A DNA stretch of 64,000 bases, taken from positions 32,001 through 96,000 of the forward strand of contig CAXXHO010000007.1 of NCBI GenBank assembly GCA_963667725.2. Reading direction: 5' to 3'. Origin of the DNA: Treponemataceae bacterium (GTDB lineage Bacteria > Spirochaetota > Spirochaetia > Treponematales > Rectinemataceae). The stretch's first letter is position 1, and the number at the start of each line of letters is the position of its first letter. Below, in pieces: positions 4,700 through 29,908 of this stretch. A program made the translations under genes and the position numbers. The notes beneath the pieces are model-generated. The model saw only the letters and a list, made by a program, of their open reading frames with translations, did not search any database and was not told where the DNA came from.

Positions 4700-5992
4700 A
4701 TGAATGTGTCCGTGTCGGCAGATGGAGACCTGTGGTTCGCCATATCGATGGAATATGACGAAGACATCGTCGCAGCCTTCAAGCGGATTCCCTGGCATCG
4801 ATGGGATCCCGATCGGAAGCTGTGGCTCTTCCCCAAAACGAAAGCCTCCCTCGACTTGGCGCGCGCGGCGCTGGACGACTCTGGACACCATATCTCTTCG
4901 CAGATCGATGCGCTGATGCCGGCTGGAGGCAAGCCGCCCGCCTTGATGCAGCCTCCCAGGAAGCTGGGTCCCGCGGACTTCTTTGAGGACGATTCGCAGC
5001 CTCTTGAGCCCTATAAGCCCGCGGCGCCCGATCAAAGCTCTCCATACATGCGGCGCTACCTGACTGCCCTGTGCGCTCGGCATTACAGCGATAGGACGAA
5101 GGAATCCTACTCGAAATGGCTGGCGCGGTTCATCGCCGCCAATAAAGGAAAAAACCCCGCCGCGATGGGCGGCCCCGATATAAACGCTTTTCTCAGCCAC
5201 CTGGCTGCCTGCGAAAACGTCAGCGCGTCGACGCAGAACCAAGCCCTTGCGGCGCTGCTATTCTTCTTTCGCAACATAATGAACAACCCCGTCGGCGACG
5301 TCGGCGAGGTTATCCGCGCTAAAAAGCCGAAGCGGCTCCCGGTCGTCATGAGCCGTCAGGAAGTCCGCGCAGTTCTTTCGGCGCTTTCGAGCGATAAATG
5401 GCTCATCGCATCGCTCATGTATGGCACAGGCCTTCGGCTCATGGAGTGCCTCGACCTTCGCGTACAGGATATCGACTTTGCGCAGAACGAAATCATTGTG
5501 CGCAACGGAAAAGGCGGCAAGGATCGGCGCACCATGCTTCCCGGGACGCTAAAGACCTCGCTGCAGGAACACCTCATCGCCGTAAAAGCCATTCACAACA
5601 AAGACCTCGCCGAAGGCTGGGGCCGCGTTCCCGTTCCGGAGGCTCTCGGGAAAAAATATCCCAACGCCGCATCCGAATGGGCATGGCAGTGGATATTCCC
5701 GCAGGAGCGGCGATGGAAGGATCCCCGCACCGGCAATCAAGGCCGCCATCACATGGACCCGAGCATCCTTCAAACAGCGGTTCATGAGGCGGTTATCAAA
5801 TCAGGCATCGCAAAGCGCGCGAGCTGCCACACGTTCCGGCATTCCTTCGCCACGCACCTGCTTGAAAATGGTTACGATATTCGCACGGTGCAAGAGCTTC
5901 TCGGCCACAGCGACGTAAAGACGACAATGATCTACACACATGTTCTGAACCGAGGCCCCAACGGCGTCCGCAGCCCCGCCGACGGCCTCTAG
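4700..5992 (+). CDS. intI: Integron integrase (tyrosine recombinase) with ~110-aa N-terminal extension
   Basis: SAM-like domain ([21 protein letters not shown]), YGTGLR, KGGKDR, IntI-specific insert ([25 protein letters not shown]...RHH), [27 protein letters not shown]. Confidence 0.97.
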
Positions 5993-6109
5993 TTTGTCAA
6001 AAATTTACAGCGTCCCTGTCGAAAATCCTTACTAGTTGTATATGGTAATTTATATTTGTATGCCCCAAAAATACTTAACAATTCATCTCCATTTATCCTC
6101 GCTCTTATG

Positions 6110-6167
6110 TGGTTCAGTCTTCAATTAAACCTCTTCTCTTTATTGAACTGTCCAATAAATGTTAGAA
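6110..6167 (+). other. attI recombination site (crossover G/TT at 6161-6162); 5' limit approximate
   Basis: First GTTAGAA core not preceded by an attC hairpin, matching TTCTAAC at 6580; inverted repeat TTTATTG..CAATAAA at 6139-6159. Confidence 0.8.
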
Positions 6168-6579
6168 CGACCTCATTCTATTGACTAGAGCCTTGCATAA
6201 TCTTGTTGCAGAATACTAAGCAACATTGCATGGCCATCATAAGAAAGATCATTTTTACATTACTGGACGGAAAAAAGTCTTGAGATGCCGCTCCAAGAAG
6301 CGCGCATTGGGCTTCTTGGAAAGTGGCGGCTAAGAGCTTCGCTGTAGGCAGTTCATCGGTCCCACCGCAGAAGCCTTATTGCTGTGAATAAAGATCAGTG
6401 ATTCGCAGAGAGCTGCCCACAGCGAAACGAAGAGGCCGCAAAGATCAAATAAGTAATAGCGCGCGAAGAGGAGCGGCAGAAGAGCGACTTTTTTCGCATT
6501 CAGAGTTGGCGAAGAGGCTCGCCAAGATTCAATATTGTGATGTTATCTTAGTGGCAGTTAGTAGCGCTAAAGTTGGCGA
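6168..6579 (+). ncRNA. ORF-less structured cassette, copy 1 (candidate ncRNA; strand uncertain)
   Basis: No ORF conserved across the 3 copies; nested helices 6270-6279/6486-6495, 6287-6301/6311-6327, 6336-6354/6410-6428, 6506-6512/6519-6525. Confidence 0.55.
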
Positions 6580-6704
6580 TTCTAACAACTGCTTCAACCT
6601 TATAAATCCTTTGTCATGGTTTGTGCAGGAACAACAATGCACAAACCACGCCAAGCCTTCACTAGCGCTCAGGCGCGGATTTAAAGGTTAAGCTAATGTT
6701 AGAA
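6580..6704 (+). repeat. attC 1 (family A)
   Basis: TTCTAAC-N4-GCTTCAAC...GTTAAGC-N4-GTTAGAA with an extra base in the L'' box. Confidence 0.95.
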
Positions 6705-7116
6705 CGGCCTCATTCTATTGACCAGAGCCTTGCACGATCTTGTTGTAGAATACTAAACGAAATTGCACGGTCATCATAAGAAAGATTATTTTTACATTAC
6801 TGGACGGAAAAAAGTCTAGAGATGCCGCTCCAAGAAACGCGCATTGGGCTTCTTGGTAAGTGGCGGCTAAGAGCTTCGCTGTAGGCAGTTCATCGGTCCC
6901 ACCGCAGAAGCCTTATTGCTGGGAATAAAAACCAGTGATTCGCAGAGAGCTGCCCACAGCGAAGCGAAGAGGCCGCAAAGGGAAAAAGTAAAATAGCGCG
7001 CGAAGAGGAGCGGCAGAAGAGCGACTTTTTTCGCATTCCGAGTTGGCGAAGAGGCTCGCCACGATTACATAATGTGATTATATCTTTGTGGCGGTTAATA
7101 GCGCTAAAGCTGGCGA
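6705..7116 (+). ncRNA. ORF-less structured cassette, copy 2
   Basis: Diverged copy of 6168-6579 with the same helices. Confidence 0.55.
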
Positions 7117-7241
7117 TTCTAACAAAAGCTTCAACCTTGTAAATCCTTTGGCATGGTTTGTGCAAGAACAACAATGCACAAACCACGCCAAGCCTGAGCT
7201 AGCGCTCAGGCGCGGATTTAAAGGTTAAGCAAATGTTAGAT
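7117..7241 (+). repeat. attC 2 (family A)
   Basis: TTCTAAC...GTTAGAT. Confidence 0.95.
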
Positions 7242-7269
7242 TGACGCTTCGCGCAGAGGAGAAGAACAT

Positions 7270-7965
7270 ATGTTGAGTGACATTTCTAGCTTAAAATTGA
7301 ACCCGATTAGCAAATATGAGTTCGAGCGCCTACTTAAAGTTAATATGCCAGAATTATTGGATAGGTTTTCACAATCAAAAGATCTAATAATTAAAATGGC
7401 AGATATCGTGCTTGAGACTGTTGCGCATGCAGAATTTCAGGTTAAAAAAGAGGAACATGTTAATGAATGGTCAAGTATAATCAAAATATGGAATGTAATT
7501 GGATTCGTATTATTAGCATCGCTTGATCTGAAAATATATTTAGAGTTAATGTGTATGTCAAAAGATAATATGCAAAAGATAGCTATAACTAGAATGGTTT
7601 ATACTCAACTATATGAAATTGCCAAAAATTTAGACGATTTAACTAATATCAGGTTTGTTGAAGAAATGAAAAAAATAAATGCTAATCAATATATAGCTGA
7701 ACTATATGAAAAAAGAAAAATGCTTTCTGATTTAAAAAGGAGATATGAAAAAGACTTATTTAGTGTAAGAGTCAACATAGGAGCACATAGAGAAAAAAAC
7801 TATCAAGTTTTTCATCAGTATTTATGTAGTATGGACTATACTGCTTCAATTCAACTAGTATTTATGTTTAATGAAGTAATCGATGCATTAGGAGAGACTC
7901 TTCAAAAAATAATGAATCAATCAGTGGGATTTATTAAAGATACATATAATGGAAAAGAAATCTAA
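7270..7965 (+). CDS. Hypothetical helical protein (cassette 3)
   Basis: GAGGAG RBS; stop codon inside the inverse core; fills the cassette. Confidence 0.85.
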   Translation: MLSDISSLKLNPISKYEFERLLKVNMPELLDRFSQSKDLIIKMADIVLETVAHAEFQVKKEEHVNEWSSIIKIWNVIGFVLLASLDLKIYLELMCMSKDNMQKIAITRMVYTQLYEIAKNLDDLTNIRFVEEMKKINANQYIAELYEKRKMLSDLKRRYEKDLFSVRVNIGAHREKNYQVFHQYLCSMDYTASIQLVFMFNEVIDALGETLQKIMNQSVGFIKDTYNGKEI

Positions 7966-8083
7966 CAAATGCTTCAACCTTGTAAATCCTTTGTCATGGT
8001 TTGTGCAAGAACTCCCTTGCACAAACCATGACAAGCCTTCGCTTTGCTCAGGCGCGGATTTAAAGGTTAAGCTAATGTTAGGC
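7960..8083 (+). repeat. attC 3 (family A)
   Basis: ATCTAAC...GTTAGGC. Confidence 0.95.
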
Positions 8084-8141
8084 AGACGCCTTCGGCGCCC
8101 GGGGCAAAGTTGAAATCGTATAAGTACCAAGGTCAAAAAAA

Positions 8142-8942
8142 ATGTGCCTTGTATTTATAGAGTGCATAAGTAGCGAGAATAGAATGAAACCAGTAAACGT
8201 AGTCAGAAAAGGAGAAGACAATAATAGCGTTTTTATTGCTTCAAATATAGGAGAATTGCTTTTGGATACTGGTGCAACATCATCACAAATTACTGAAAAA
8301 AGTGTACCATTGAATACAAAAATAGTTGGGGATATAAAATCTCACGGTTTCTTTGGCAAAAGCAGAACTATGAGAAATTCTACTGTTCCGATTTTATCTA
8401 TAGGCGATATAGTAAAGCAAAATGTACCAATGCAAATTGATATGTCGCTTAATGCCCATGGGATATTGGGAATGGATATTTTATCAGAGTATAAAGTATT
8501 CCTTGATATAAAAAATGGTATTGTATGCTTTGATTCAGAAAAAATATGCTCACAAGAAATGTATAAAGGTAATCGTAAAATGTATTGCCTTCCCATAGTA
8601 CTAAATGGCATTTCGTTATGGGGGCTATTAGATACAGGTGCAAGCGGAACAATAGTGAGCAAAACACTATTCAAAAAGTATCCTGAGTTTTTTGAATATG
8701 CAGGAAAAGATACAGCAAAAGATTGGACAGGAGCAGGTTTTTCGTGTGATTTAGTGACAATAAAGAATCTTATTGTAGGAGATTATAAGATTCCTGATCA
8801 TAAGGGAGCTATTCTAAATCTTTGGCCTTACAGATTCCTCATTGGGAAAGCTATTGAGTTTATAATTGGTGTAACAACATTAGAGAAGGGTAATTGGATT
8901 TTTGATTTTCCTAACTCGAAATGGGAATATATTGCGTATTGA
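8142..8942 (+). CDS. Retropepsin-like aspartyl protease with two tandem domains (cassette 4)
   Basis: LLDTGATSS...GILGMDIL and LLDTGASGT...FIIG; start could be the later ATG (MKPV). Confidence 0.85.
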   Translation: MCLVFIECISSENRMKPVNVVRKGEDNNSVFIASNIGELLLDTGATSSQITEKSVPLNTKIVGDIKSHGFFGKSRTMRNSTVPILSIGDIVKQNVPMQIDMSLNAHGILGMDILSEYKVFLDIKNGIVCFDSEKICSQEMYKGNRKMYCLPIVLNGISLWGLLDTGASGTIVSKTLFKKYPEFFEYAGKDTAKDWTGAGFSCDLVTIKNLIVGDYKIPDHKGAILNLWPYRFLIGKAIEFIIGVTTLEKGNWIFDFPNSKWEYIAY

Positions 8943-8963
8943 ATAAGGGCATAGGATAATTTT

Positions 8964-9087
8964 GCCTAACACCTGCTTCAACCTTATAAATCCTTTGGCA
9001 TGGTTCTAGCGAAAAGATCGCGCAAGAACCATGCCAAGCCTTCGCAGTAGCTCAGGCGCGGATTTACAGGTTAAGCTAATGTTCTAC
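8964..9087 (+). repeat. attC 4
   Basis: GCCTAAC...GTTCTAC (non-canonical core). Confidence 0.93.
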
Positions 9088-9140
9088 GGACCCTCCGGGC
9101 GGGAAGAATATATATACCTAATCATAGATGATTAGAGTAA

Positions 9141-9626
9141 ATGAGGGATTTTATGGGAAGTATTTTTACAGTTGACAATTTCAAACTCGCAAGTTCTATT
9201 GTTTCTCCCTTTTTAGCTGCATATCTAGCATCGCATTGGGCATTAAAAAAACACTACAAAGAAAAATGGTGGGAAAGAAAAGAAATTGCATATAAAGACA
9301 TTATTGACTCATTATATGATCTTCTACAGTATTGTGAAATTGAAAAAGAAGACTATGAGCATAGATCAACAATACAGATAGATAAATTTAATGAACTTCA
9401 GGGGAAATACAATAATGCATATTGGAATATTAAGAAAAATACCATTATAGCTGAATATCTAGTTTCAAAAGATGCAGCAGCTGCTTTAAAAATATTGCAA
9501 AATCGCGAAAAGTTGAAATGGGACGAAAATCCTCCATGGGAAATATTCGAAGCAGAATATAATGCTTATCAGAAAGCACTTATGGAAATAATCCGTACTT
9601 CAAATATTGATTTGAAAAAGAAATAA
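9141..9626 (+). CDS. Hypothetical protein with N-terminal TM segment (cassette 5)
   Basis: 161 aa; TM followed by KEKWWERKEIAY. Confidence 0.8.
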   Translation: MRDFMGSIFTVDNFKLASSIVSPFLAAYLASHWALKKHYKEKWWERKEIAYKDIIDSLYDLLQYCEIEKEDYEHRSTIQIDKFNELQGKYNNAYWNIKKNTIIAEYLVSKDAAAALKILQNREKLKWDENPPWEIFEAEYNAYQKALMEIIRTSNIDLKKK

Positions 9627-9729
9627 GTCAAATATATCAATATTGTGATTAGATTTAAGAACTTACAATAGCAAGAAGATATATATTGTGTGGTAAGGTT
9701 TAGAGTTAAATATTTTTTAAGGGGGAGAA

Positions 9730-9933
9730 ATGAATATCAAGGAAGGTTTTAGGAGATTATCGATTTTGATTGGTATTATTAGTACATTAGTTTTCTTTTT
9801 AGCTTTTGCTTCAAATAATGGAGAACAAATAGGTTTAGTAATTCTTGTTTCACTAGTGGTAGGGTTAGTTGCATCTGGAATCACTTTACTGATTGGTTAT
9901 GTCCTAGAAGGCTTTAAAAATAAAAATGCGTAG
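9730..9933 (+). CDS. Small two-TM membrane protein (cassette 5, second gene)
   Basis: GGGGAG RBS, two hydrophobic helices, stop inside the inverse core. Confidence 0.75.
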   Translation: MNIKEGFRRLSILIGIISTLVFFLAFASNNGEQIGLVILVSLVVGLVASGITLLIGYVLEGFKNKNA

Positions 9934-10053
9934 AACACATGCTTCAACCTTATAAATCCTTTGGCATGGTTTGTGCAGGAACAAAAATGCACAAACCACG
10001 CCAAGCCTTCACTTTGTTCAGGCACGGATTTAAAGGTTAAGCAAATGTTAGAT
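9930..10053 (+). repeat. attC 5 (family A)
   Basis: GTAGAAC (complement of GTTCTAC at 9081)...GTTAGAT. Confidence 0.95.
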
Positions 10054-10110
10054 GGACGCCTTCGGCGCATATAAAATAAAAAAGTAAAAGCTGCCATTTT
10101 AAGGGTTACT

Positions 10111-10638
10111 ATGAAAATATTTACAAATAGATTGGAATTAAGAGAGTATTGTGAAAATGATCTAGAGCTGTTGCATAACTTTAGGATTGATAAAAATATT
10201 TCAAAGTATATTCATTGGAATGACCTAAGCCTTGAAGGTACGAGAAGTATTCTAAAAGAGGGGCTTGATGATCAAAAAGAAGAAAATAGAAAGTATTATC
10301 ATTTTGTAGTTTGCTTAATGCCGGATAATATCCCAATTGGAGAGATAGGTGTCAATATAAAAATTAGCAATATATATGGCGGCATTGGTATATTAGGCTA
10401 TTTTATGTTTAAAGAATATTGGCATAATGGGTATATGTCTGAAGCAGCGCATGGAATTATAGAATATATGTTTATTGAGCTTAAGTTACATAAAATAGAG
10501 GCATATGTTGATTATAAGAATAAAAGATCAATAAAGGTGTTAAAAAGATTAGGAATGAAGAAAGAAGCACAATTTAAAAAAGAAGTATTCGTTAACAATA
10601 GATGGGAAGATGTTGTTTATTATGCATTAGTAAAGTGA
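10111..10638 (+). CDS. GNAT acetyltransferase, RimJ/RimL type (cassette 6)
   Basis: TNRLELR, LGY..YWHNGYMSEA, NKRSIKVLKRLGM. Confidence 0.9.
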   Translation: MKIFTNRLELREYCENDLELLHNFRIDKNISKYIHWNDLSLEGTRSILKEGLDDQKEENRKYYHFVVCLMPDNIPIGEIGVNIKISNIYGGIGILGYFMFKEYWHNGYMSEAAHGIIEYMFIELKLHKIEAYVDYKNKRSIKVLKRLGMKKEAQFKKEVFVNNRWEDVVYYALVK

Positions 10639-10667
10639 AATTGAGAAAATGAGATTGGGAAGCATTC

Positions 10668-10790
10668 ATCTAACAACTGCTTCAACCTTATAAATCCTTT
10701 GTCATGGTTTGTGCAAGAAAAAAGAGCACAAACCACGCCAAGCCTTCGCTTTGCTCAGGCGCGGATTTAAAGGTTAAGCTAATGTTAGAA
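10668..10790 (+). repeat. attC 6 (family A)
   Basis: ATCTAAC...GTTAGAA. Confidence 0.95.
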
Positions 10791-11201
10791 CGACCTCATT
10801 CTATTGACTAGAGCCTTGCATGATCTTGTTGCAGAATACTAAGCAGAATTGCATGATTATCATAAGAAAGATCATTTTTACATTACTGGACGGAAAAAAG
10901 TCTTGAGATGCCGCTCCAAGAAGCGCGCATTGGGCTTCTTGGAAAGTGGCGGCTAAGAGCTTCGCTGTAGGCAGTTCATCGGTCCCACCGCAGAAGATTT
11001 CTCTCTGGGAATGAAACCAGTGATTCGCAGAGAGCTGCCCACAGCGAAGCGAAGAGGCCGCAAAGGGAAAAAGTAAAATAGCGCGCGAAGAGGAGCGGCA
11101 GAAGAGCGACTTTTTTCGCATTCAGAGTTGGCGAAGAGGCTCGCCAAGATTACGTAATGTGATTATATCTTTGTGGCGGTTGGTAGCGCTAAAGTTGGCG
11201 A
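10791..11201 (+). ncRNA. ORF-less structured cassette, copy 3
   Basis: Third diverged copy, 1 nt shorter, same helices. Confidence 0.55.
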
Positions 11202-11325
11202 TTCTAACAAAAGCTTCAACCTTATAAATCCTTTGTCATGGTTTGTGCAGAAATCCCATGCACAAACCACGCCAAGCCTTCGCAGTAGCTCAGGCGCGGA
11301 TTTAAAGGTTAAGCTAATGTTAGAT
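11202..11325 (+). repeat. attC 7 (family A)
   Basis: TTCTAAC...GTTAGAT. Confidence 0.95.
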
Positions 11326-12117: not shown

Positions 12118-12960
12118 GTGAACATGCAATTTGAACAATTATACAAATTATCAAGAAGGCCGAAGCTTTACGAGTTAGGCAACTCAATTATGTGGACGGA
12201 TCCGTATATATCAAAACAGCTTCTTGAATGTCATCTCAATCCAAATAATGATATGGCGAGTAGAAGTAATGATAAAATCAACCTTGTAATAGATTGGATT
12301 GAGCAACATACAAATAAAGAAAAAATGGATATTCTTGATCTTGGATGTGGTCCCGGACTTTATGCAGAAAAGTTCGCAAGCCATGGCCATAAAGTTTCTG
12401 GTGTAGACTTTTCAAGCAACTCTATAGCGTATGCGAAAAAAGCTACATTGCTGAACAAGACAAATATTAGCTATTACTGTAAGAACTACTTGGATATCGA
12501 TTTCAAAGAGGCTTTTGATCTAGTTATACTGATCTACCTTGATTTTTGTGTTCTTAATGTTCATGAACGTAAAGTAGTAATAGAAAATGTATATAGATCA
12601 CTAAGAGATGGCGGAGTCTTTATATTTGATGTAGTGAATAGCAACAACATAGAAGATAAAGTACTAAAACAATCATGGGATATAAGTAAAAAAGGCTTTT
12701 GGAGTGATAAGCCATATATTGTCATGAATAATGGCTATAATTATAAAGATGATAAAGTATTGCTAAACCAGCATATTGTCATTACGGAAGATGAGGCTGT
12801 AAAGACATATCATTTCTGGAGCATATATTATGATTATGAAGATATCGTTCCATCACTAAAAGACAGTCGTTATAAAAGTATTGAAAGTTATAATAACGTG
12901 CTTCCAAAGACTGATGCTTGGACAGGAGATAACATTTCATTCTATATAGCAAGGAAATAG
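12118..12960 (+). CDS. Class I SAM-dependent methyltransferase (cassette 9)
   Basis: ILDLGCGPG, GVDFS, FDLV, LRDGGVFIFDV. Confidence 0.92.
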   Translation: MNMQFEQLYKLSRRPKLYELGNSIMWTDPYISKQLLECHLNPNNDMASRSNDKINLVIDWIEQHTNKEKMDILDLGCGPGLYAEKFASHGHKVSGVDFSSNSIAYAKKATLLNKTNISYYCKNYLDIDFKEAFDLVILIYLDFCVLNVHERKVVIENVYRSLRDGGVFIFDVVNSNNIEDKVLKQSWDISKKGFWSDKPYIVMNNGYNYKDDKVLLNQHIVITEDEAVKTYHFWSIYYDYEDIVPSLKDSRYKSIESYNNVLPKTDAWTGDNISFYIARK

Positions 12961-13191: not shown

Positions 13192-13211
13192 ATAAGGGTA
13201 TGGAGGACATC

Positions 13212-13409
13212 ATGGCTACAAACCTCGCTATAGATGATAGATTACTCACAAAAGCGCTTGAAATTGGCGGTTATAAATCAAAAAAGGACACTGTTAATGC
13301 TGCACTCGATGAATTTATCAAAAGAAGAAAAGCGAAAGAGCTTATAGATATTTTTGGTACAATTGAATATGAGGCTTCTTATGATTATAAAAAAATGAGA
13401 TCACGATGA
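13212..13409 (+). CDS. vapB: VapB-type antitoxin (cassette 10)
   Basis: MATNLAIDDRLL..SKKDTVNAAL; GGAGG RBS; overlaps the PIN toxin. Confidence 0.88.
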   Translation: MATNLAIDDRLLTKALEIGGYKSKKDTVNAALDEFIKRRKAKELIDIFGTIEYEASYDYKKMRSR

Positions 13410-13819
13410 AACGAGTATTAGTAGATACTTCAGTATGGTCTCTTGCATTAAGAAAAAAGGAAAGAACGGAGGAAGAACAAAAGATTGTAAGCCATCTATC
13501 TAAACTAATAAGTAATCTTACTATTGTTCTTATAGGTCCAATACGGCAAGAGATTCTATCGGGAATTCCAACGAAAGAACGATTTGAAGCACTTAAAGAA
13601 AAAATATCAATATTCGAAGATCATAAAATACATACAAATGATTATGAGCTTGCCGCAGAATACTTCAATGAATGTAGAAAACATGGGATACAAGGATCTC
13701 ATATAGATTACTTAATATGTTCCGTTGCTACAAATAATGATATGTCAATATTTACATTGGATAATGATTTTCAACTCTATAAAAAACATATAAGAATTAA
13801 GTTAGAAAAATTCGCATAA
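13406..13819 (+). CDS. vapC: VapC PIN-domain toxin
   Basis: VLVDTSVW, QEILSG, IDYLI, TLDNDF. Confidence 0.92.
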   Translation: MKRVLVDTSVWSLALRKKERTEEEQKIVSHLSKLISNLTIVLIGPIRQEILSGIPTKERFEALKEKISIFEDHKIHTNDYELAAEYFNECRKHGIQGSHIDYLICSVATNNDMSIFTLDNDFQLYKKHIRIKLEKFA

Positions 13820-17209: not shown

Positions 17210-17737
17210 ATGAAAATATTTACAAATAGATTGGAATTAAGAGAGTATTGTGAAAATGATCTAGAGCTGTTGCATAGCTTTAGGATTGATAAAAATATTT
17301 CAAAGTATATTCATTGGAATGACCTAAGCCTTGAAGGTACGAGAAGTATTCTAAAAGAGGGGCTTGATGATCAAAAAGAAGAAAATAGAAAGTATTATCA
17401 TTTTGTAGTTTGCTTAATGCCGGATAATATCCCAATTGGAGAGATAGGTGTCAATATAAAAATTAGCAATATATATGGCGGCATTGGTATATTAGGCTAT
17501 TTTATGTTTAAAGAATATTGGCATAATGGGTATATGTCTGAAGCAGCGCATGGAATTATAGAATATATGTTTATTGAGCTTAAGTTACATAAAATAGAAG
17601 CATATGTTGATTGTAAGAATAAAAGATCAATAAAGGTGTTAAAAAGATTAGGAATGAAGAAAGAAGCACAATTTAAAAAAGAAGTATTCGTTAACAATAG
17701 ATGGGAAGATGTTGTTTATTATGCATTAGTAAAGTGA
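17210..17737 (+). CDS. GNAT acetyltransferase, near-identical copy of 10111..10638 (cassette 15)
   Basis: Two amino-acid differences (N/S, Y/C). Confidence 0.9.
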   Translation: MKIFTNRLELREYCENDLELLHSFRIDKNISKYIHWNDLSLEGTRSILKEGLDDQKEENRKYYHFVVCLMPDNIPIGEIGVNIKISNIYGGIGILGYFMFKEYWHNGYMSEAAHGIIEYMFIELKLHKIEAYVDCKNKRSIKVLKRLGMKKEAQFKKEVFVNNRWEDVVYYALVK

Positions 17738-17899: not shown

Positions 17900-18702
17900 A
17901 TGAGTTTATATAAATATCGAGCGGTTGGGGACTTGGCTTCTGGAGACATTGATCCGCATTAGCTACCTTACTTTCAAAAGGTGAAATATATTTTTCTAGT
18001 CCTAAAGAATTTAATGATCCGTTTGATTGTTTATTTTCTTTTTACAAAAATGTAACTAATATTGAAATAATTAAACACTTAAGGAGTATTTTAGTACCAG
18101 AGTCTGAAATACAATATTTATTAACTAATCATGGTCTAGCAAAACTAAAAGATAAAGTAATTGAGAAGAATGAAAATGCTGATCTTTTACGAATATTTAG
18201 TCTGGCTAAAAATTGCTTAAATACTTTACTTTGGTCTCATTACTCACAAAATCATTATGGTATATGTATAGGCTTTAAGACTTATAACTATAATAATACA
18301 GAGCATTTATATATAACACGTAATCAAATAGATGTTAATTTACCTGAATATCCAAATAACCTAGTACCCGCAGTTAAGGTAAATTACACTAGTGAAAGAC
18401 CTGAAGCATTTAGTATTATTTTAAAAGAATCCGATGATCTTAAGAAAGTATTTTTAACAAAAGATATATGTTGGGAATATGAAGAAGAAAGAAGAATTAT
18501 TGTTCCAAGTAAATATATTAAGAGAAATCCTATTCATATAAATCGATCTCAAATTGAAGAAATTATCTTTGGATTGAGAACACCAAAAATATTTGAGGAC
18601 AAAATCATAAGTATAGTAAGCGATATTAAGGATATAAAGATATATAAAGTTAAAATAAAGAATGGATCATTTAAATTAATTAAGCAAAAATATACTGCCT
18701 AA
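17900..18702 (+). pseudogene. DUF2971-family gene with a frameshift near 17959 (cassette 16; absent from the ORF track)
   Basis: MSLYKYR.. stops at TAG 17960; the -1 frame continues FSSPKEFNDPFDC..LWSHYSQNHYGICIGF..TKDICWEYEEERRII..EIIFG to TAA 18700-18702. Confidence 0.85.
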
Positions 18703-20970: not shown

Positions 20971-21813
20971 GTGAACATGCAATTTGAACAATTATACAAA
21001 TTATCAAGAAGGCCGAAGCTTTACGAGTTAGGCAACTCAATTATGTGGACGGATCCGTATATATCAAAACAGCTTCTTGAATGTCATCTCAATCCAAATA
21101 ATGATATGGCGAGTAGAAGTAATGATAAAATCAACCTTGTAATAGATTGGATTGAGCAACATACAAATAAAGAAAAAATGGATATTCTTGATCTTGGATG
21201 TGGTCCCGGACTTTATGCAGAAAAGTTCGCAAGCCATGGCCATAAAGTTTCTGGTGTAGACTTTTCAAGCAACTCTATAGCGTATGCGAAAAAAGCTACA
21301 TTGCTGAACAAGACAAATATTAGCTATTACTGTAAGAACTACTTGGATATCGATTTCAAAGAGGCTTTTGATCTAGTTATACTGATCTACCTTGATTTTT
21401 GTGTTCTTAATGTTCATGAACGTAAAGTAGTAATAGAAAATGTATATAGATCACTAAGAGATGGCGGAGTCTTTATATTTGATGTAGTGAATAGCAACAA
21501 CATAGAAGATAAAGTACTAAAACAATCATGGGATATAAGTAAAAAAGGCTTTTGGAGTGATAAGCCATATATTGTCATGAATAATGGCTATAATTATAAA
21601 GATGATAAAGTATTGCTAAACCAGCATATTGTCATTACGGAAGATGAGGCTGTAAAGACATATCATTTCTGGAGCACATATTATGATTATGAAGATATCG
21701 TTCCATCACTAAAAGACAGTCGTTATAAAAGTATTGAAAGTTATAATAACGTGCTTCCAAAGACTGATGCTTGGACAGGAGATAACATTTCATTCTATAT
21801 AGCAAGGAAATAG
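20971..21813 (+). CDS. SAM-dependent methyltransferase, copy of 12118..12960 (cassette 20)
   Basis: One amino-acid difference (I/T). Confidence 0.92.
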   Translation: MNMQFEQLYKLSRRPKLYELGNSIMWTDPYISKQLLECHLNPNNDMASRSNDKINLVIDWIEQHTNKEKMDILDLGCGPGLYAEKFASHGHKVSGVDFSSNSIAYAKKATLLNKTNISYYCKNYLDIDFKEAFDLVILIYLDFCVLNVHERKVVIENVYRSLRDGGVFIFDVVNSNNIEDKVLKQSWDISKKGFWSDKPYIVMNNGYNYKDDKVLLNQHIVITEDEAVKTYHFWSTYYDYEDIVPSLKDSRYKSIESYNNVLPKTDAWTGDNISFYIARK

Positions 21814-22790: not shown

Positions 22791-22997
22791 ATGAAAACTA
22801 TCACTATATCAAGCAAATATCAAGTTGTTATACCTAAAGAAATAAGAGAAACTATAGGGCTGCATGTAGGTGCAAAACTTGAGATCATTACCTATGGATC
22901 AAGAATTGAACTTGTCCCTATTCAATCTATGAAGAAACTCAAAGGGGCTTTCAAGGGAATCGATACTAATGTTCAAAGAGAAGAAGACAGAATATGA
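22791..22997 (+). CDS. AbrB/MazE-type antitoxin (cassette 22)
   Basis: ISSKYQVVIPKEIRE..G.KL. Confidence 0.9.
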   Translation: MKTITISSKYQVVIPKEIRETIGLHVGAKLEIITYGSRIELVPIQSMKKLKGAFKGIDTNVQREEDRI

Positions 22998-23368
22998 ACA
23001 TTGTAGATTCATCATGTTGGCTAGAGTATTTTGCAGGAAGCCGTGTAGGAGATGAAGTATCATCAGTTATAGAAGATACGGATCATCTCCTGGTTCCTTC
23101 AATCATTGTCTATGAAGTGTTCAAAAAGCTCATACTTGAATTGGATGAAGATAAGGCAATATATGCAGTAGCCCATATGAAACAAGGGCATATAGTGAAT
23201 CTTGATACTGACTTAGCAATCTACGCAGCAAAAATTGGCAAAGACAATAAGCTTGCTATGGCAGATAGTATAATCTACGCGATAACAAAAAAGTATAATG
23301 CTTTATTATGGACACAAGACAAACACTTCAAGGATTTGAAGTCAATCAAGTATTTTGAAAAGAAATAG
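22994..23368 (+). CDS. vapC: VapC PIN-domain toxin
   Basis: IVDSSCWLEY, YEV, MADSIIYA, WTQDKHF. Confidence 0.92.
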   Translation: MNIVDSSCWLEYFAGSRVGDEVSSVIEDTDHLLVPSIIVYEVFKKLILELDEDKAIYAVAHMKQGHIVNLDTDLAIYAAKIGKDNKLAMADSIIYAITKKYNALLWTQDKHFKDLKSIKYFEKK

Positions 23369-29778: not shown

Positions 29779-29908
29779 TTCTATCAATCGCTTCAATCCA
29801 ACTCGGCTACTGTCACGGTTTGTGCAAGGCCGCTTGGCTCCCAGCACAAACCACGCCAAGTTTTCGCTTCGCGCAGGCTCGGATTTAAAGGTTAAGCTAA
29901 TGATAGAC
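29779..29908 (+). repeat. attC 30 (both cores changed: ATC/GAT)
   Basis: TTCTATC...GATAGAC; family C left arm, family A right arm. Confidence 0.85.

Follow-up and report, generated by a model that had tools for sequence, protein, structure and literature searches.

What is kept in an integron cassette that carries no gene? The question is raised by a 64,000-nucleotide stretch of a Treponemataceae bacterium genome (assembly GCA_963667725.2, contig CAXXHO010000007.1, positions 32,001 to 96,000), here called the window and used for all coordinates unless stated, in which three gene-less cassettes lie in one integron array: cassette 1 (copy c1, 6162-6698), cassette 2 (c2, 6699-7235), and cassette 7 (c7, 10785-11319), all on the plus strand. 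An initial annotation had described these as complete units running from GTTAGAA to TTCTAAC, each with its own attC, as diverged copies of one sequence, as richer in guanine and cytosine (GC) than their neighbours, and as lacking a shared open reading frame (ORF). Each of these points holds, with the copies 91.6-92.5% identical, a body GC content of 0.47 compared with a median of 0.32 (5-95% range 0.26-0.38) for 204 parsed cassettes, and no ORF common to the three. Given their bounds R' and R'', an attC, and a place in the array behind the integrase gene intI and attI, c1, c2, and c7 are gene-less integron cassettes, and they are the only copies in the source genome (4.2 Mb, 8 contigs). They belong to a real and undescribed structured family within this known kind of cassette, whose shared fold is, as modelled here, a rod with its five helices, linked by purine-rich RAGA loops, arranged about a bubble that keeps its size but varies in sequence.

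Structure of the conserved rod

The conserved rod of c1 extends from P1 to P1' (6270-6495, plus strand, 226 bases), with equivalents at 6807-7032 in c2 and about 10893-11117 in c7. From the base, P1 (10-13 bp), P2, and P3 follow one another, separated by purine loops; beyond the bubble come P4, a further purine loop, P5, and an apical domain. The 5' strand of P1 (6270-6279) pairs with 6486-6495, that of P2 (6287-6294) with 6470-6477, that of P3 (6300-6304), a nearly invariant GC clamp, with 6460-6464, that of P4 (6326-6330) with 6435-6439, and that of P5 (6336-6351) with 6412-6428. The 5' strand of the central bubble (6305-6325) measures 19-21 nt in all lineages and is variable in sequence, with the 3' strand (6440-6459) measuring 19-20 nt, as compared in six representatives. 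P4 is followed by the best-kept internal loop, RAAGA x RAAGA (6331-35/6429-34), and P5 by the apical domain (6352-6411), which spans 55-77 nt plus an RAGA loop strand and has no fold common to the lineages. The 3' arm from P2 to P1 repeats the 5' arm from P4 to P5, such that one module, composed of a GCNGC helix, a RAAGA x RAAGA loop, and an A/U-tract helix, occurs twice, inverted about the bubble. A side hairpin 3' of P1 (6506-6525) may form a three-way junction with a predicted helix at 6255-62/6533-40, weakly suggested by the few changes seen there, and a junction of like topology is predicted for lineage B. The consensus folds predicted separately for all three lineages likewise hint that both cassette ends pair, with a further 2-bp extension.

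Folding is better than in every one of 100 dinucleotide-shuffled controls on the plus strand (z-score of -4.6) and on the minus strand (z-score of -6.2). Twelve further copies bring the set to 15, from three lineages and about seven independent sources, with core identity between lineages of 56-71%, and in a MAFFT alignment of these copies made from sequence only, 97.4% of 613 cells are paired and 13 of 41 pairs show two-sided change. P1 is Watson-Crick in all 150 cells, with seven of its ten pairs changed on both sides, whilst in P2 the third pair occurs as C-G, U-G, and U-A, and the eighth as C-G and U-A. The covariation score of 0.210, compared with 0.085 in shuffled alignments and reached by none of 500 shuffles, is strong but carries no formal p-value, as relatedness is not taken into account by the shuffling and the lineages number only three; slid registers leave 36-51% of cells paired. 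Folded as RNA, P2 and P3 show pairing probabilities of 0.73-1.00 on the plus strand in nine of nine copies, and P4 of 0.88-0.99 in seven of nine. The motif RAGA(D)GC, defined post hoc, occurs 4-6 times per core compared with 0.35-0.47 times in shuffles, and the kept loops are 86-95% purine compared with 51-65% in the flanks. To some extent, the uniformity of P4, P2', and their loops follows from the way in which the copies were found, mostly with a pattern derived from the rod.

The initial annotation had proposed nested helices arranged as a branched multiloop of three hairpins. The single-stranded fold is upheld, and its closing stem (6270-79/6486-95), the helix within 6336-6428, and the hairpin at 6506-6525 are real; the branched arrangement, however, gives way to the rod. 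The proposed hairpin at 6287-6327 can form 14-15 of its 15 pairs in the source genome's copies but only 8-11 of 15 in the 12 homologues from elsewhere; the register of the rod (6287-94/6470-77, 6300-04/6460-64, and 6326-30/6435-39) forms 17-18 of 18 pairs in each of the 15 copies. Similarly, the proposed helix 6435-39/6473-77 has a pairing probability of 0.00 in all nine copies folded, and an inner CGGT/ACCG hairpin is present in lineage A and absent from the other lineages. The description of a functional non-coding cassette is supported in the sense of selection for a single-stranded fold, with homologues in three lineages and compensatory changes between them. Neutral template switching from one arm of a quasi-palindrome to the other would preserve symmetry without selection on function, and the changes in P1 are always two-sided, with no intermediates; such a process should also perfect the loops and the bubble, yet these remain unpaired and of constant size between lineages as diverged as these, and we consider this origin scarcely probable.

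Coding potential, promoters, and known families

No Rfam family matches any part of the window at gathering threshold, with chance-level matches at E <= 10 and none meaningful on the rod, in keeping with the earlier view that the element is assignable to no known family. No description of the rod family was found in the open-access literature, although paper supplements could hold motifs absent from Rfam (one supplement of PMC8632094 was without a relevant term). No start, stop, or reading frame common to the lineages was found. The best candidate for a small protein, a minus-strand frame beginning MRKKSLFCRSS, runs without a stop over 34, 48, and 106 codons in c1, c2, and c7, respectively, and in part in lineage B, but G091 and lineage B lack its ATG, the frame is broken in L073b, in-frame stops fall just past the shared stretch in L061a and G002, and lengths and ends are unrelated, leaving this reading largely refuted and highly improbable. 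The three outcomes that would have spoken against a new element, an Rfam match, a lack of covariation, and a conserved minus-strand ORF, were each looked for, and the claim stands.

A search limited to sigma70-like promoters found none in the bodies of c1, c2, and c7 and none at a common position in the 15 copies, with an extended -10 element just upstream of P1 in three of 15 only; a terminator-like site was not found either. This bears on the possibility that the cassette acts in cis as a spacer or promoter, with its fold making an untranslated cassette non-polar or stabilising the array transcript, or with the cassette supplying a promoter to its neighbours. Gene-less promoter cassettes have been shown in Vibrionaceae (10.1101/2023.11.21.568050) and oral Treponema (PMC6557892), and poorly translated cassettes are polar (PMC11511950), as stated in the parts of these sources available, and a place at the front of the array would fit. 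A promoter, however, needs no covariation over a 220-nt range, the neighbouring cassettes differ in every array, and no sigma70-like site was found in the bodies, making a cis-acting role unlikely.

Promoter-like sites are found at the attC sites, with that of c1 (6580-6704, plus strand, from R'' TTCTAAC to R' GTTAGAA) bearing one on each strand. These sigma70-like sites, at 6579-6638 and 7116-7175, point in opposite directions, one into the following cassette and the other back into the cassette to which the attC belongs. The latter, TTTATA/TTTACA-16-TGnTAGAAT on the minus strand (6606-6579 and 7143-7116), spans attC and R'' and could drive a bottom-strand RNA towards attI and intI. All 13 complete copies preserve the R'' context and the folding z-score is stronger on the minus strand, but the site is a by-product of the attC consensus (the same octamer closes 15 of 215 cassettes), the loops of such an RNA would be pyrimidine mismatches, and wobbles shared between copies favour the top strand by four to one. 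A bottom-strand RNA is therefore very unlikely.

Two known classes of RNA were also compared. A guide RNA with two guide strands, compared using box C/D and bridge-RNA-like features that we take to be characteristic, is not indicated, with the bubble and apical strands of c1, c2, and c7 matching their own genome no better than ten shuffles of each. Membership of the 6S RNA family is likewise not indicated, with no RF00013 match at E <= 10 for lineages A, B, and C, and no -10-like hexamer shared in the 3' bubble strand by eye. No 6S RNA was found in the source genome either by the RF00013 model or by zapA/ygfA synteny, and the model detects seven of 14 controls, which limits the sensitivity of this test. 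In architecture, the rod cassettes nevertheless agree with 6S RNA, sharing the rod, the bubble at its centre, and the pair of discontinuous arms.

Homologues and distribution

The 15-copy set, from which identical loci (L075, L114, L115, L021, and L060) were dropped, was assembled by several routes. BLAST of relatives identified G020 (one of 60) and subsequently, in 68 family genomes, G091 and, as a weak match, G002, all three confirmed by a covariance model that recovered none further in the family; weak matches in G015 and G010 were not confirmed. A pattern scan yielded four real loci of 54 in a genome collection and eight of 72 in metagenomes, three of them redundant, with nhmmer exposing a diverged copy adjoining one metagenome locus. 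All 15 copies start at a cassette junction and share one attC family, with 13 complete and two cut or altered at a contig end. The G020 copy ends in unrelated sequence instead of R''/attC at the contig end (L002, 1-70), whilst the near-identical L129 is complete, pointing to misassembly or insertion. As the neighbouring cassettes differ in every array, the cassette appears from these comparisons to be mobile as a unit. A miniature inverted-repeat transposable element or insertion sequence is rejected, with no copy lying outside cassettes in the source genome and every copy starting at a junction. At L106 (about 1870-2135, the same in L114), a transposase-like element splits the attC directly behind the rod cassette.

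Close homologues come from Treponemataceae or Treponema records. Large assembled arrays, scored by an exact attC pattern, are present in two of 69 family genomes (195 and 44 matches), both of which carry the rod cassette; a third family genome with seven matches does not. Outside the host family, BLAST with the lineage-C copy against 400 genomes of the order gave weak matches that were dropped on retest, the covariance model gave just three partial matches in 150 genomes of the order (E 0.006-0.03), and 150 genomes of the class gave no rod homologue. Thirty loci from a phylum-wide pattern were negative, although that pattern also missed the source genome's own copies. Plasmids gave 11 chance matches of 23 nt and phages none, and no real homologue was found in viral contigs, with one false match in one scan and none real among 80 of 120 matches tested in another. 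Two loci (L056 and L061, of G401) are contigs of a genome titled Bacteroidales that bear a spirochaete-type attC array, with toxin-antitoxin cassettes nearly identical to those at 13200-13819 and 22791-23368 of the window, reflecting either misbinning or cross-phylum transfer.

The integron and its array

The integrase gene intI (4700-5992, plus strand; PF00589, E 1e-35, and PF13495) is of the Treponema type and is followed by an array of about 30 cassettes on the same strand, a co-oriented layout reported for Treponema (in the part of PMC6557892 available). The N-terminus of the integrase (4700-4830) holds a HARP-like stretch (E 1.5e-4, below the Pfam cut-off). The attI region (6086-6165, plus strand), with its crossover at G6161/T6162, resembles the stretches preceding the first cassettes of the genome's two other integrons of this type, three in all, and of G020. 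Copy c1 is first after attI, and rod cassettes fill three of the first seven positions (about 1% by hand calculation); in G020 and the near-identical L129, the rod cassette is also first. Tandem pairs occur at c1-c2, in L061, and in L073, with the L073 pair combining two different lineages.

The copies c1, c2, and c7 look mosaic, with c1 sharing a block with G091 that is missing from c2 and c7. Two other cassettes in the array, encoding a GNAT acetyltransferase (10111-10638 and 17210-17737) and a methyltransferase-like protein (12118-12960 and 20971-21813), are duplicated with 99-100% identity, compared with 92% among the rod copies. An 820-bp cassette at 17950-18700, with broken reading frames and a longest ORF of 42 amino acids, is probably a decayed gene. 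Genome-wide, 215 cassettes in 155 clusters were parsed, an incomplete set in which gene-less families have the most copies (11, 6, 4, and 3).

These include a 163-bp family with 11 copies (G000:C5, 496-544 kb, minus strand; mean identity 90%, twice in tandem) whose fold scores better for the bottom strand (z -2.7 and -4.1) than for the top. A 227-229-bp family of six copies (G000:C5, 470-488 kb, minus strand) forms a long stem (z -4 to -9), the base of which repeats the R'/R'' pair internally, as though one cassette were nested within another. Families of 562 bp and 491 bp with a similar long hairpin (G000:C1, first at attI and also at 29811, 26150, 16799, and 9239; G000:C5, at 549883 and 535055) stand first or second after attI in the genome's other two integrons.

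Strand and nature of the molecule

The initial annotation left the strand of the element undecided, and the balance now leans modestly to the top strand, with wobbles common to several copies numbering four G.U and one A.C when read on it. In integrons, the bottom strand recombines and the top strand is transcribed. Purine loops of the RAAGA x RAAGA kind fit tandem sheared G.A pairs, although no paper combining all terms for this motif was found in the literature. Because the kept loops are suited to such pairing on the top strand, while integrons recombine the bottom strand, the top strand is favoured as the working strand; because the array transcribes that strand, the working molecule is probably, although by no means certainly, an RNA.

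Proposed function

We tentatively propose, with rather less than even confidence, that the rod cassette is a promoterless RNA gene encoding a putative decoy for a nucleic-acid-binding protein, the dose of which is set by position and copy number. A promoter upstream of the array would drive transcription of the cassette when it lies near attI. The top-strand rod, with its bubble of kept length and variable sequence between GC clamps, would mimic, like 6S RNA, a DNA duplex that contains a bubble. It might thereby bind the RNA polymerase of the host, or a DNA- or RNA-binding protein of phage or host origin. The two-fold module would suit a dimeric or two-site binder, with re-integration at attI and tandem copies raising the dose of the decoy.

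Several observations weigh against this proposal. No upstream promoter was identified near attI, and both strands fold equally well with RNA or DNA parameters. With single-copy changes included, the wobbles number seven G.U and five A.C, and P1, having no wobble in its 150 cells, suits a fold of both DNA strands or template-switch repair. Cassette top strands are A-rich in any case (median A 0.39, T 0.29). Four RNA-labelled sequencing runs, represented by contigs with DNA-like coverage, covered intI and a neighbouring dehydrogenase gene at least as well as the rod, which was covered in two of them. The family comprises three lineages from some seven sources found mostly with the rod-derived pattern, with G002 and L073b found without it. 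Furthermore, front placement is not peculiar to the rod, as the other gene-less families are also multi-copy and front-loaded.

The less probable but still credible alternative is that of a selfish cassette acting as single-stranded DNA (ssDNA), with the fold bringing the ends together for more excision, or with the excised circle surviving as a nearly fully paired rod to re-integrate at attI. The equal stability of both strands with DNA parameters, the strictly Watson-Crick P1, and the predicted pairing of cassette ends are all consistent with this, as are the high copy numbers of the gene-less families, which hold four of the six first-two positions in the genome's three integrons. The HARP-like domain of the integrase, a weak match, could read junctions of single- and double-stranded DNA. 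Selfishness has also been proposed for non-coding cassettes of Vibrio (PMC1382264). Stability alone, however, explains neither a motif repeated 4-6 times nor an unpaired bubble of fixed length; the kept loops are readily understood as top-strand features, yet it is the bottom strand that recombines; and the three copies, 8-9% diverged and mosaic-looking, are not fresh duplicates. The clamps, GA loops, and bubble are mutable parts, such that compensatory mutants could separate the RNA-decoy explanation from the selfish-DNA one.

A bolder form of the decoy proposal, which we regard as a long shot, is that integrons carry mobile mimics of the open promoter, 6S-like decoy RNAs that tie up RNA polymerase or a DNA-binding protein of a phage, at a dose adjusted as the cassettes move and double at attI. 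If true, gene-less cassettes would gain a trans-acting, possibly anti-phage role, and a decoy for the transcription machinery could be a shuffled accessory gene.

Comparison with known systems

The rod family adds an undescribed family of structured nucleic acids, narrowly distributed and with an inferred function, from anaerobic spirochaetes. The comparison that follows draws on parts of the cited sources, according to which the role of gene-less cassettes has been open since 2006, with promoters and one cited small RNA (sRNA) the functions shown so far. The paralogous non-coding cassettes of Vibrio, for which Boucher et al. (2006, PMC1382264) left open selfishness versus RNA or promoter function, resemble the rod cassettes in being gene-less, multi-copy within an array, and kept across species of one clade without homologues beyond it. 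No structure is given for them in the text available, whereas the rod cassettes have a covarying rod defined across diverged lineages. Promoter cassettes (10.1101/2023.11.21.568050; PMC6557892) are also gene-less, with one standing first in a Treponema-type integron, however no conserved sigma70-like site was found in the rod body, which conserves a long-range fold instead.

The carriage of an RNA gene as cassette cargo has a precedent in sRNA-Xcc1 of Xanthomonas campestris, an integron-cassette-encoded sRNA described as regulated by HrpG/HrpX (cited in PMC6557892 and PMC8876359). The rod has no Rfam match to sRNA-Xcc1, differs from it in host and size, and shows no sigma70-like promoter of its own. 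The attC-like ssDNA motifs DUF1874 (PMC5737381) and OTH-22-1 (PMC8632094) are comparable in being structured, in occurring in integron-like arrays, and in the difficulty of telling RNA from ssDNA. These motifs, however, sit between genes as repeats resembling recombination sites, whereas the rod is cargo between ordinary attC sites.

In architecture, the rod matches what has been described for 6S RNA (PMC8876501), a mimic of the open promoter that is about 200 nt long and rod-like, its discontinuous arms accompanied by a central bubble. The rod differs in its length of 226-250 nt, its variable apical domain, its two-fold GA-loop modules, the absence of a covariance-model match, and a 20 x 20 bubble in which no -10-like hexamer is conserved, and it is mobile, multi-copy, and narrowly distributed. 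In common with 6S RNA (RF00013; PMC8876501), and with the related RNA-polymerase-binding Ms1 RNA grouped with it in this likeness, it has a rod-like form, a central bubble, two discontinuous helical arms, and short internal loops.

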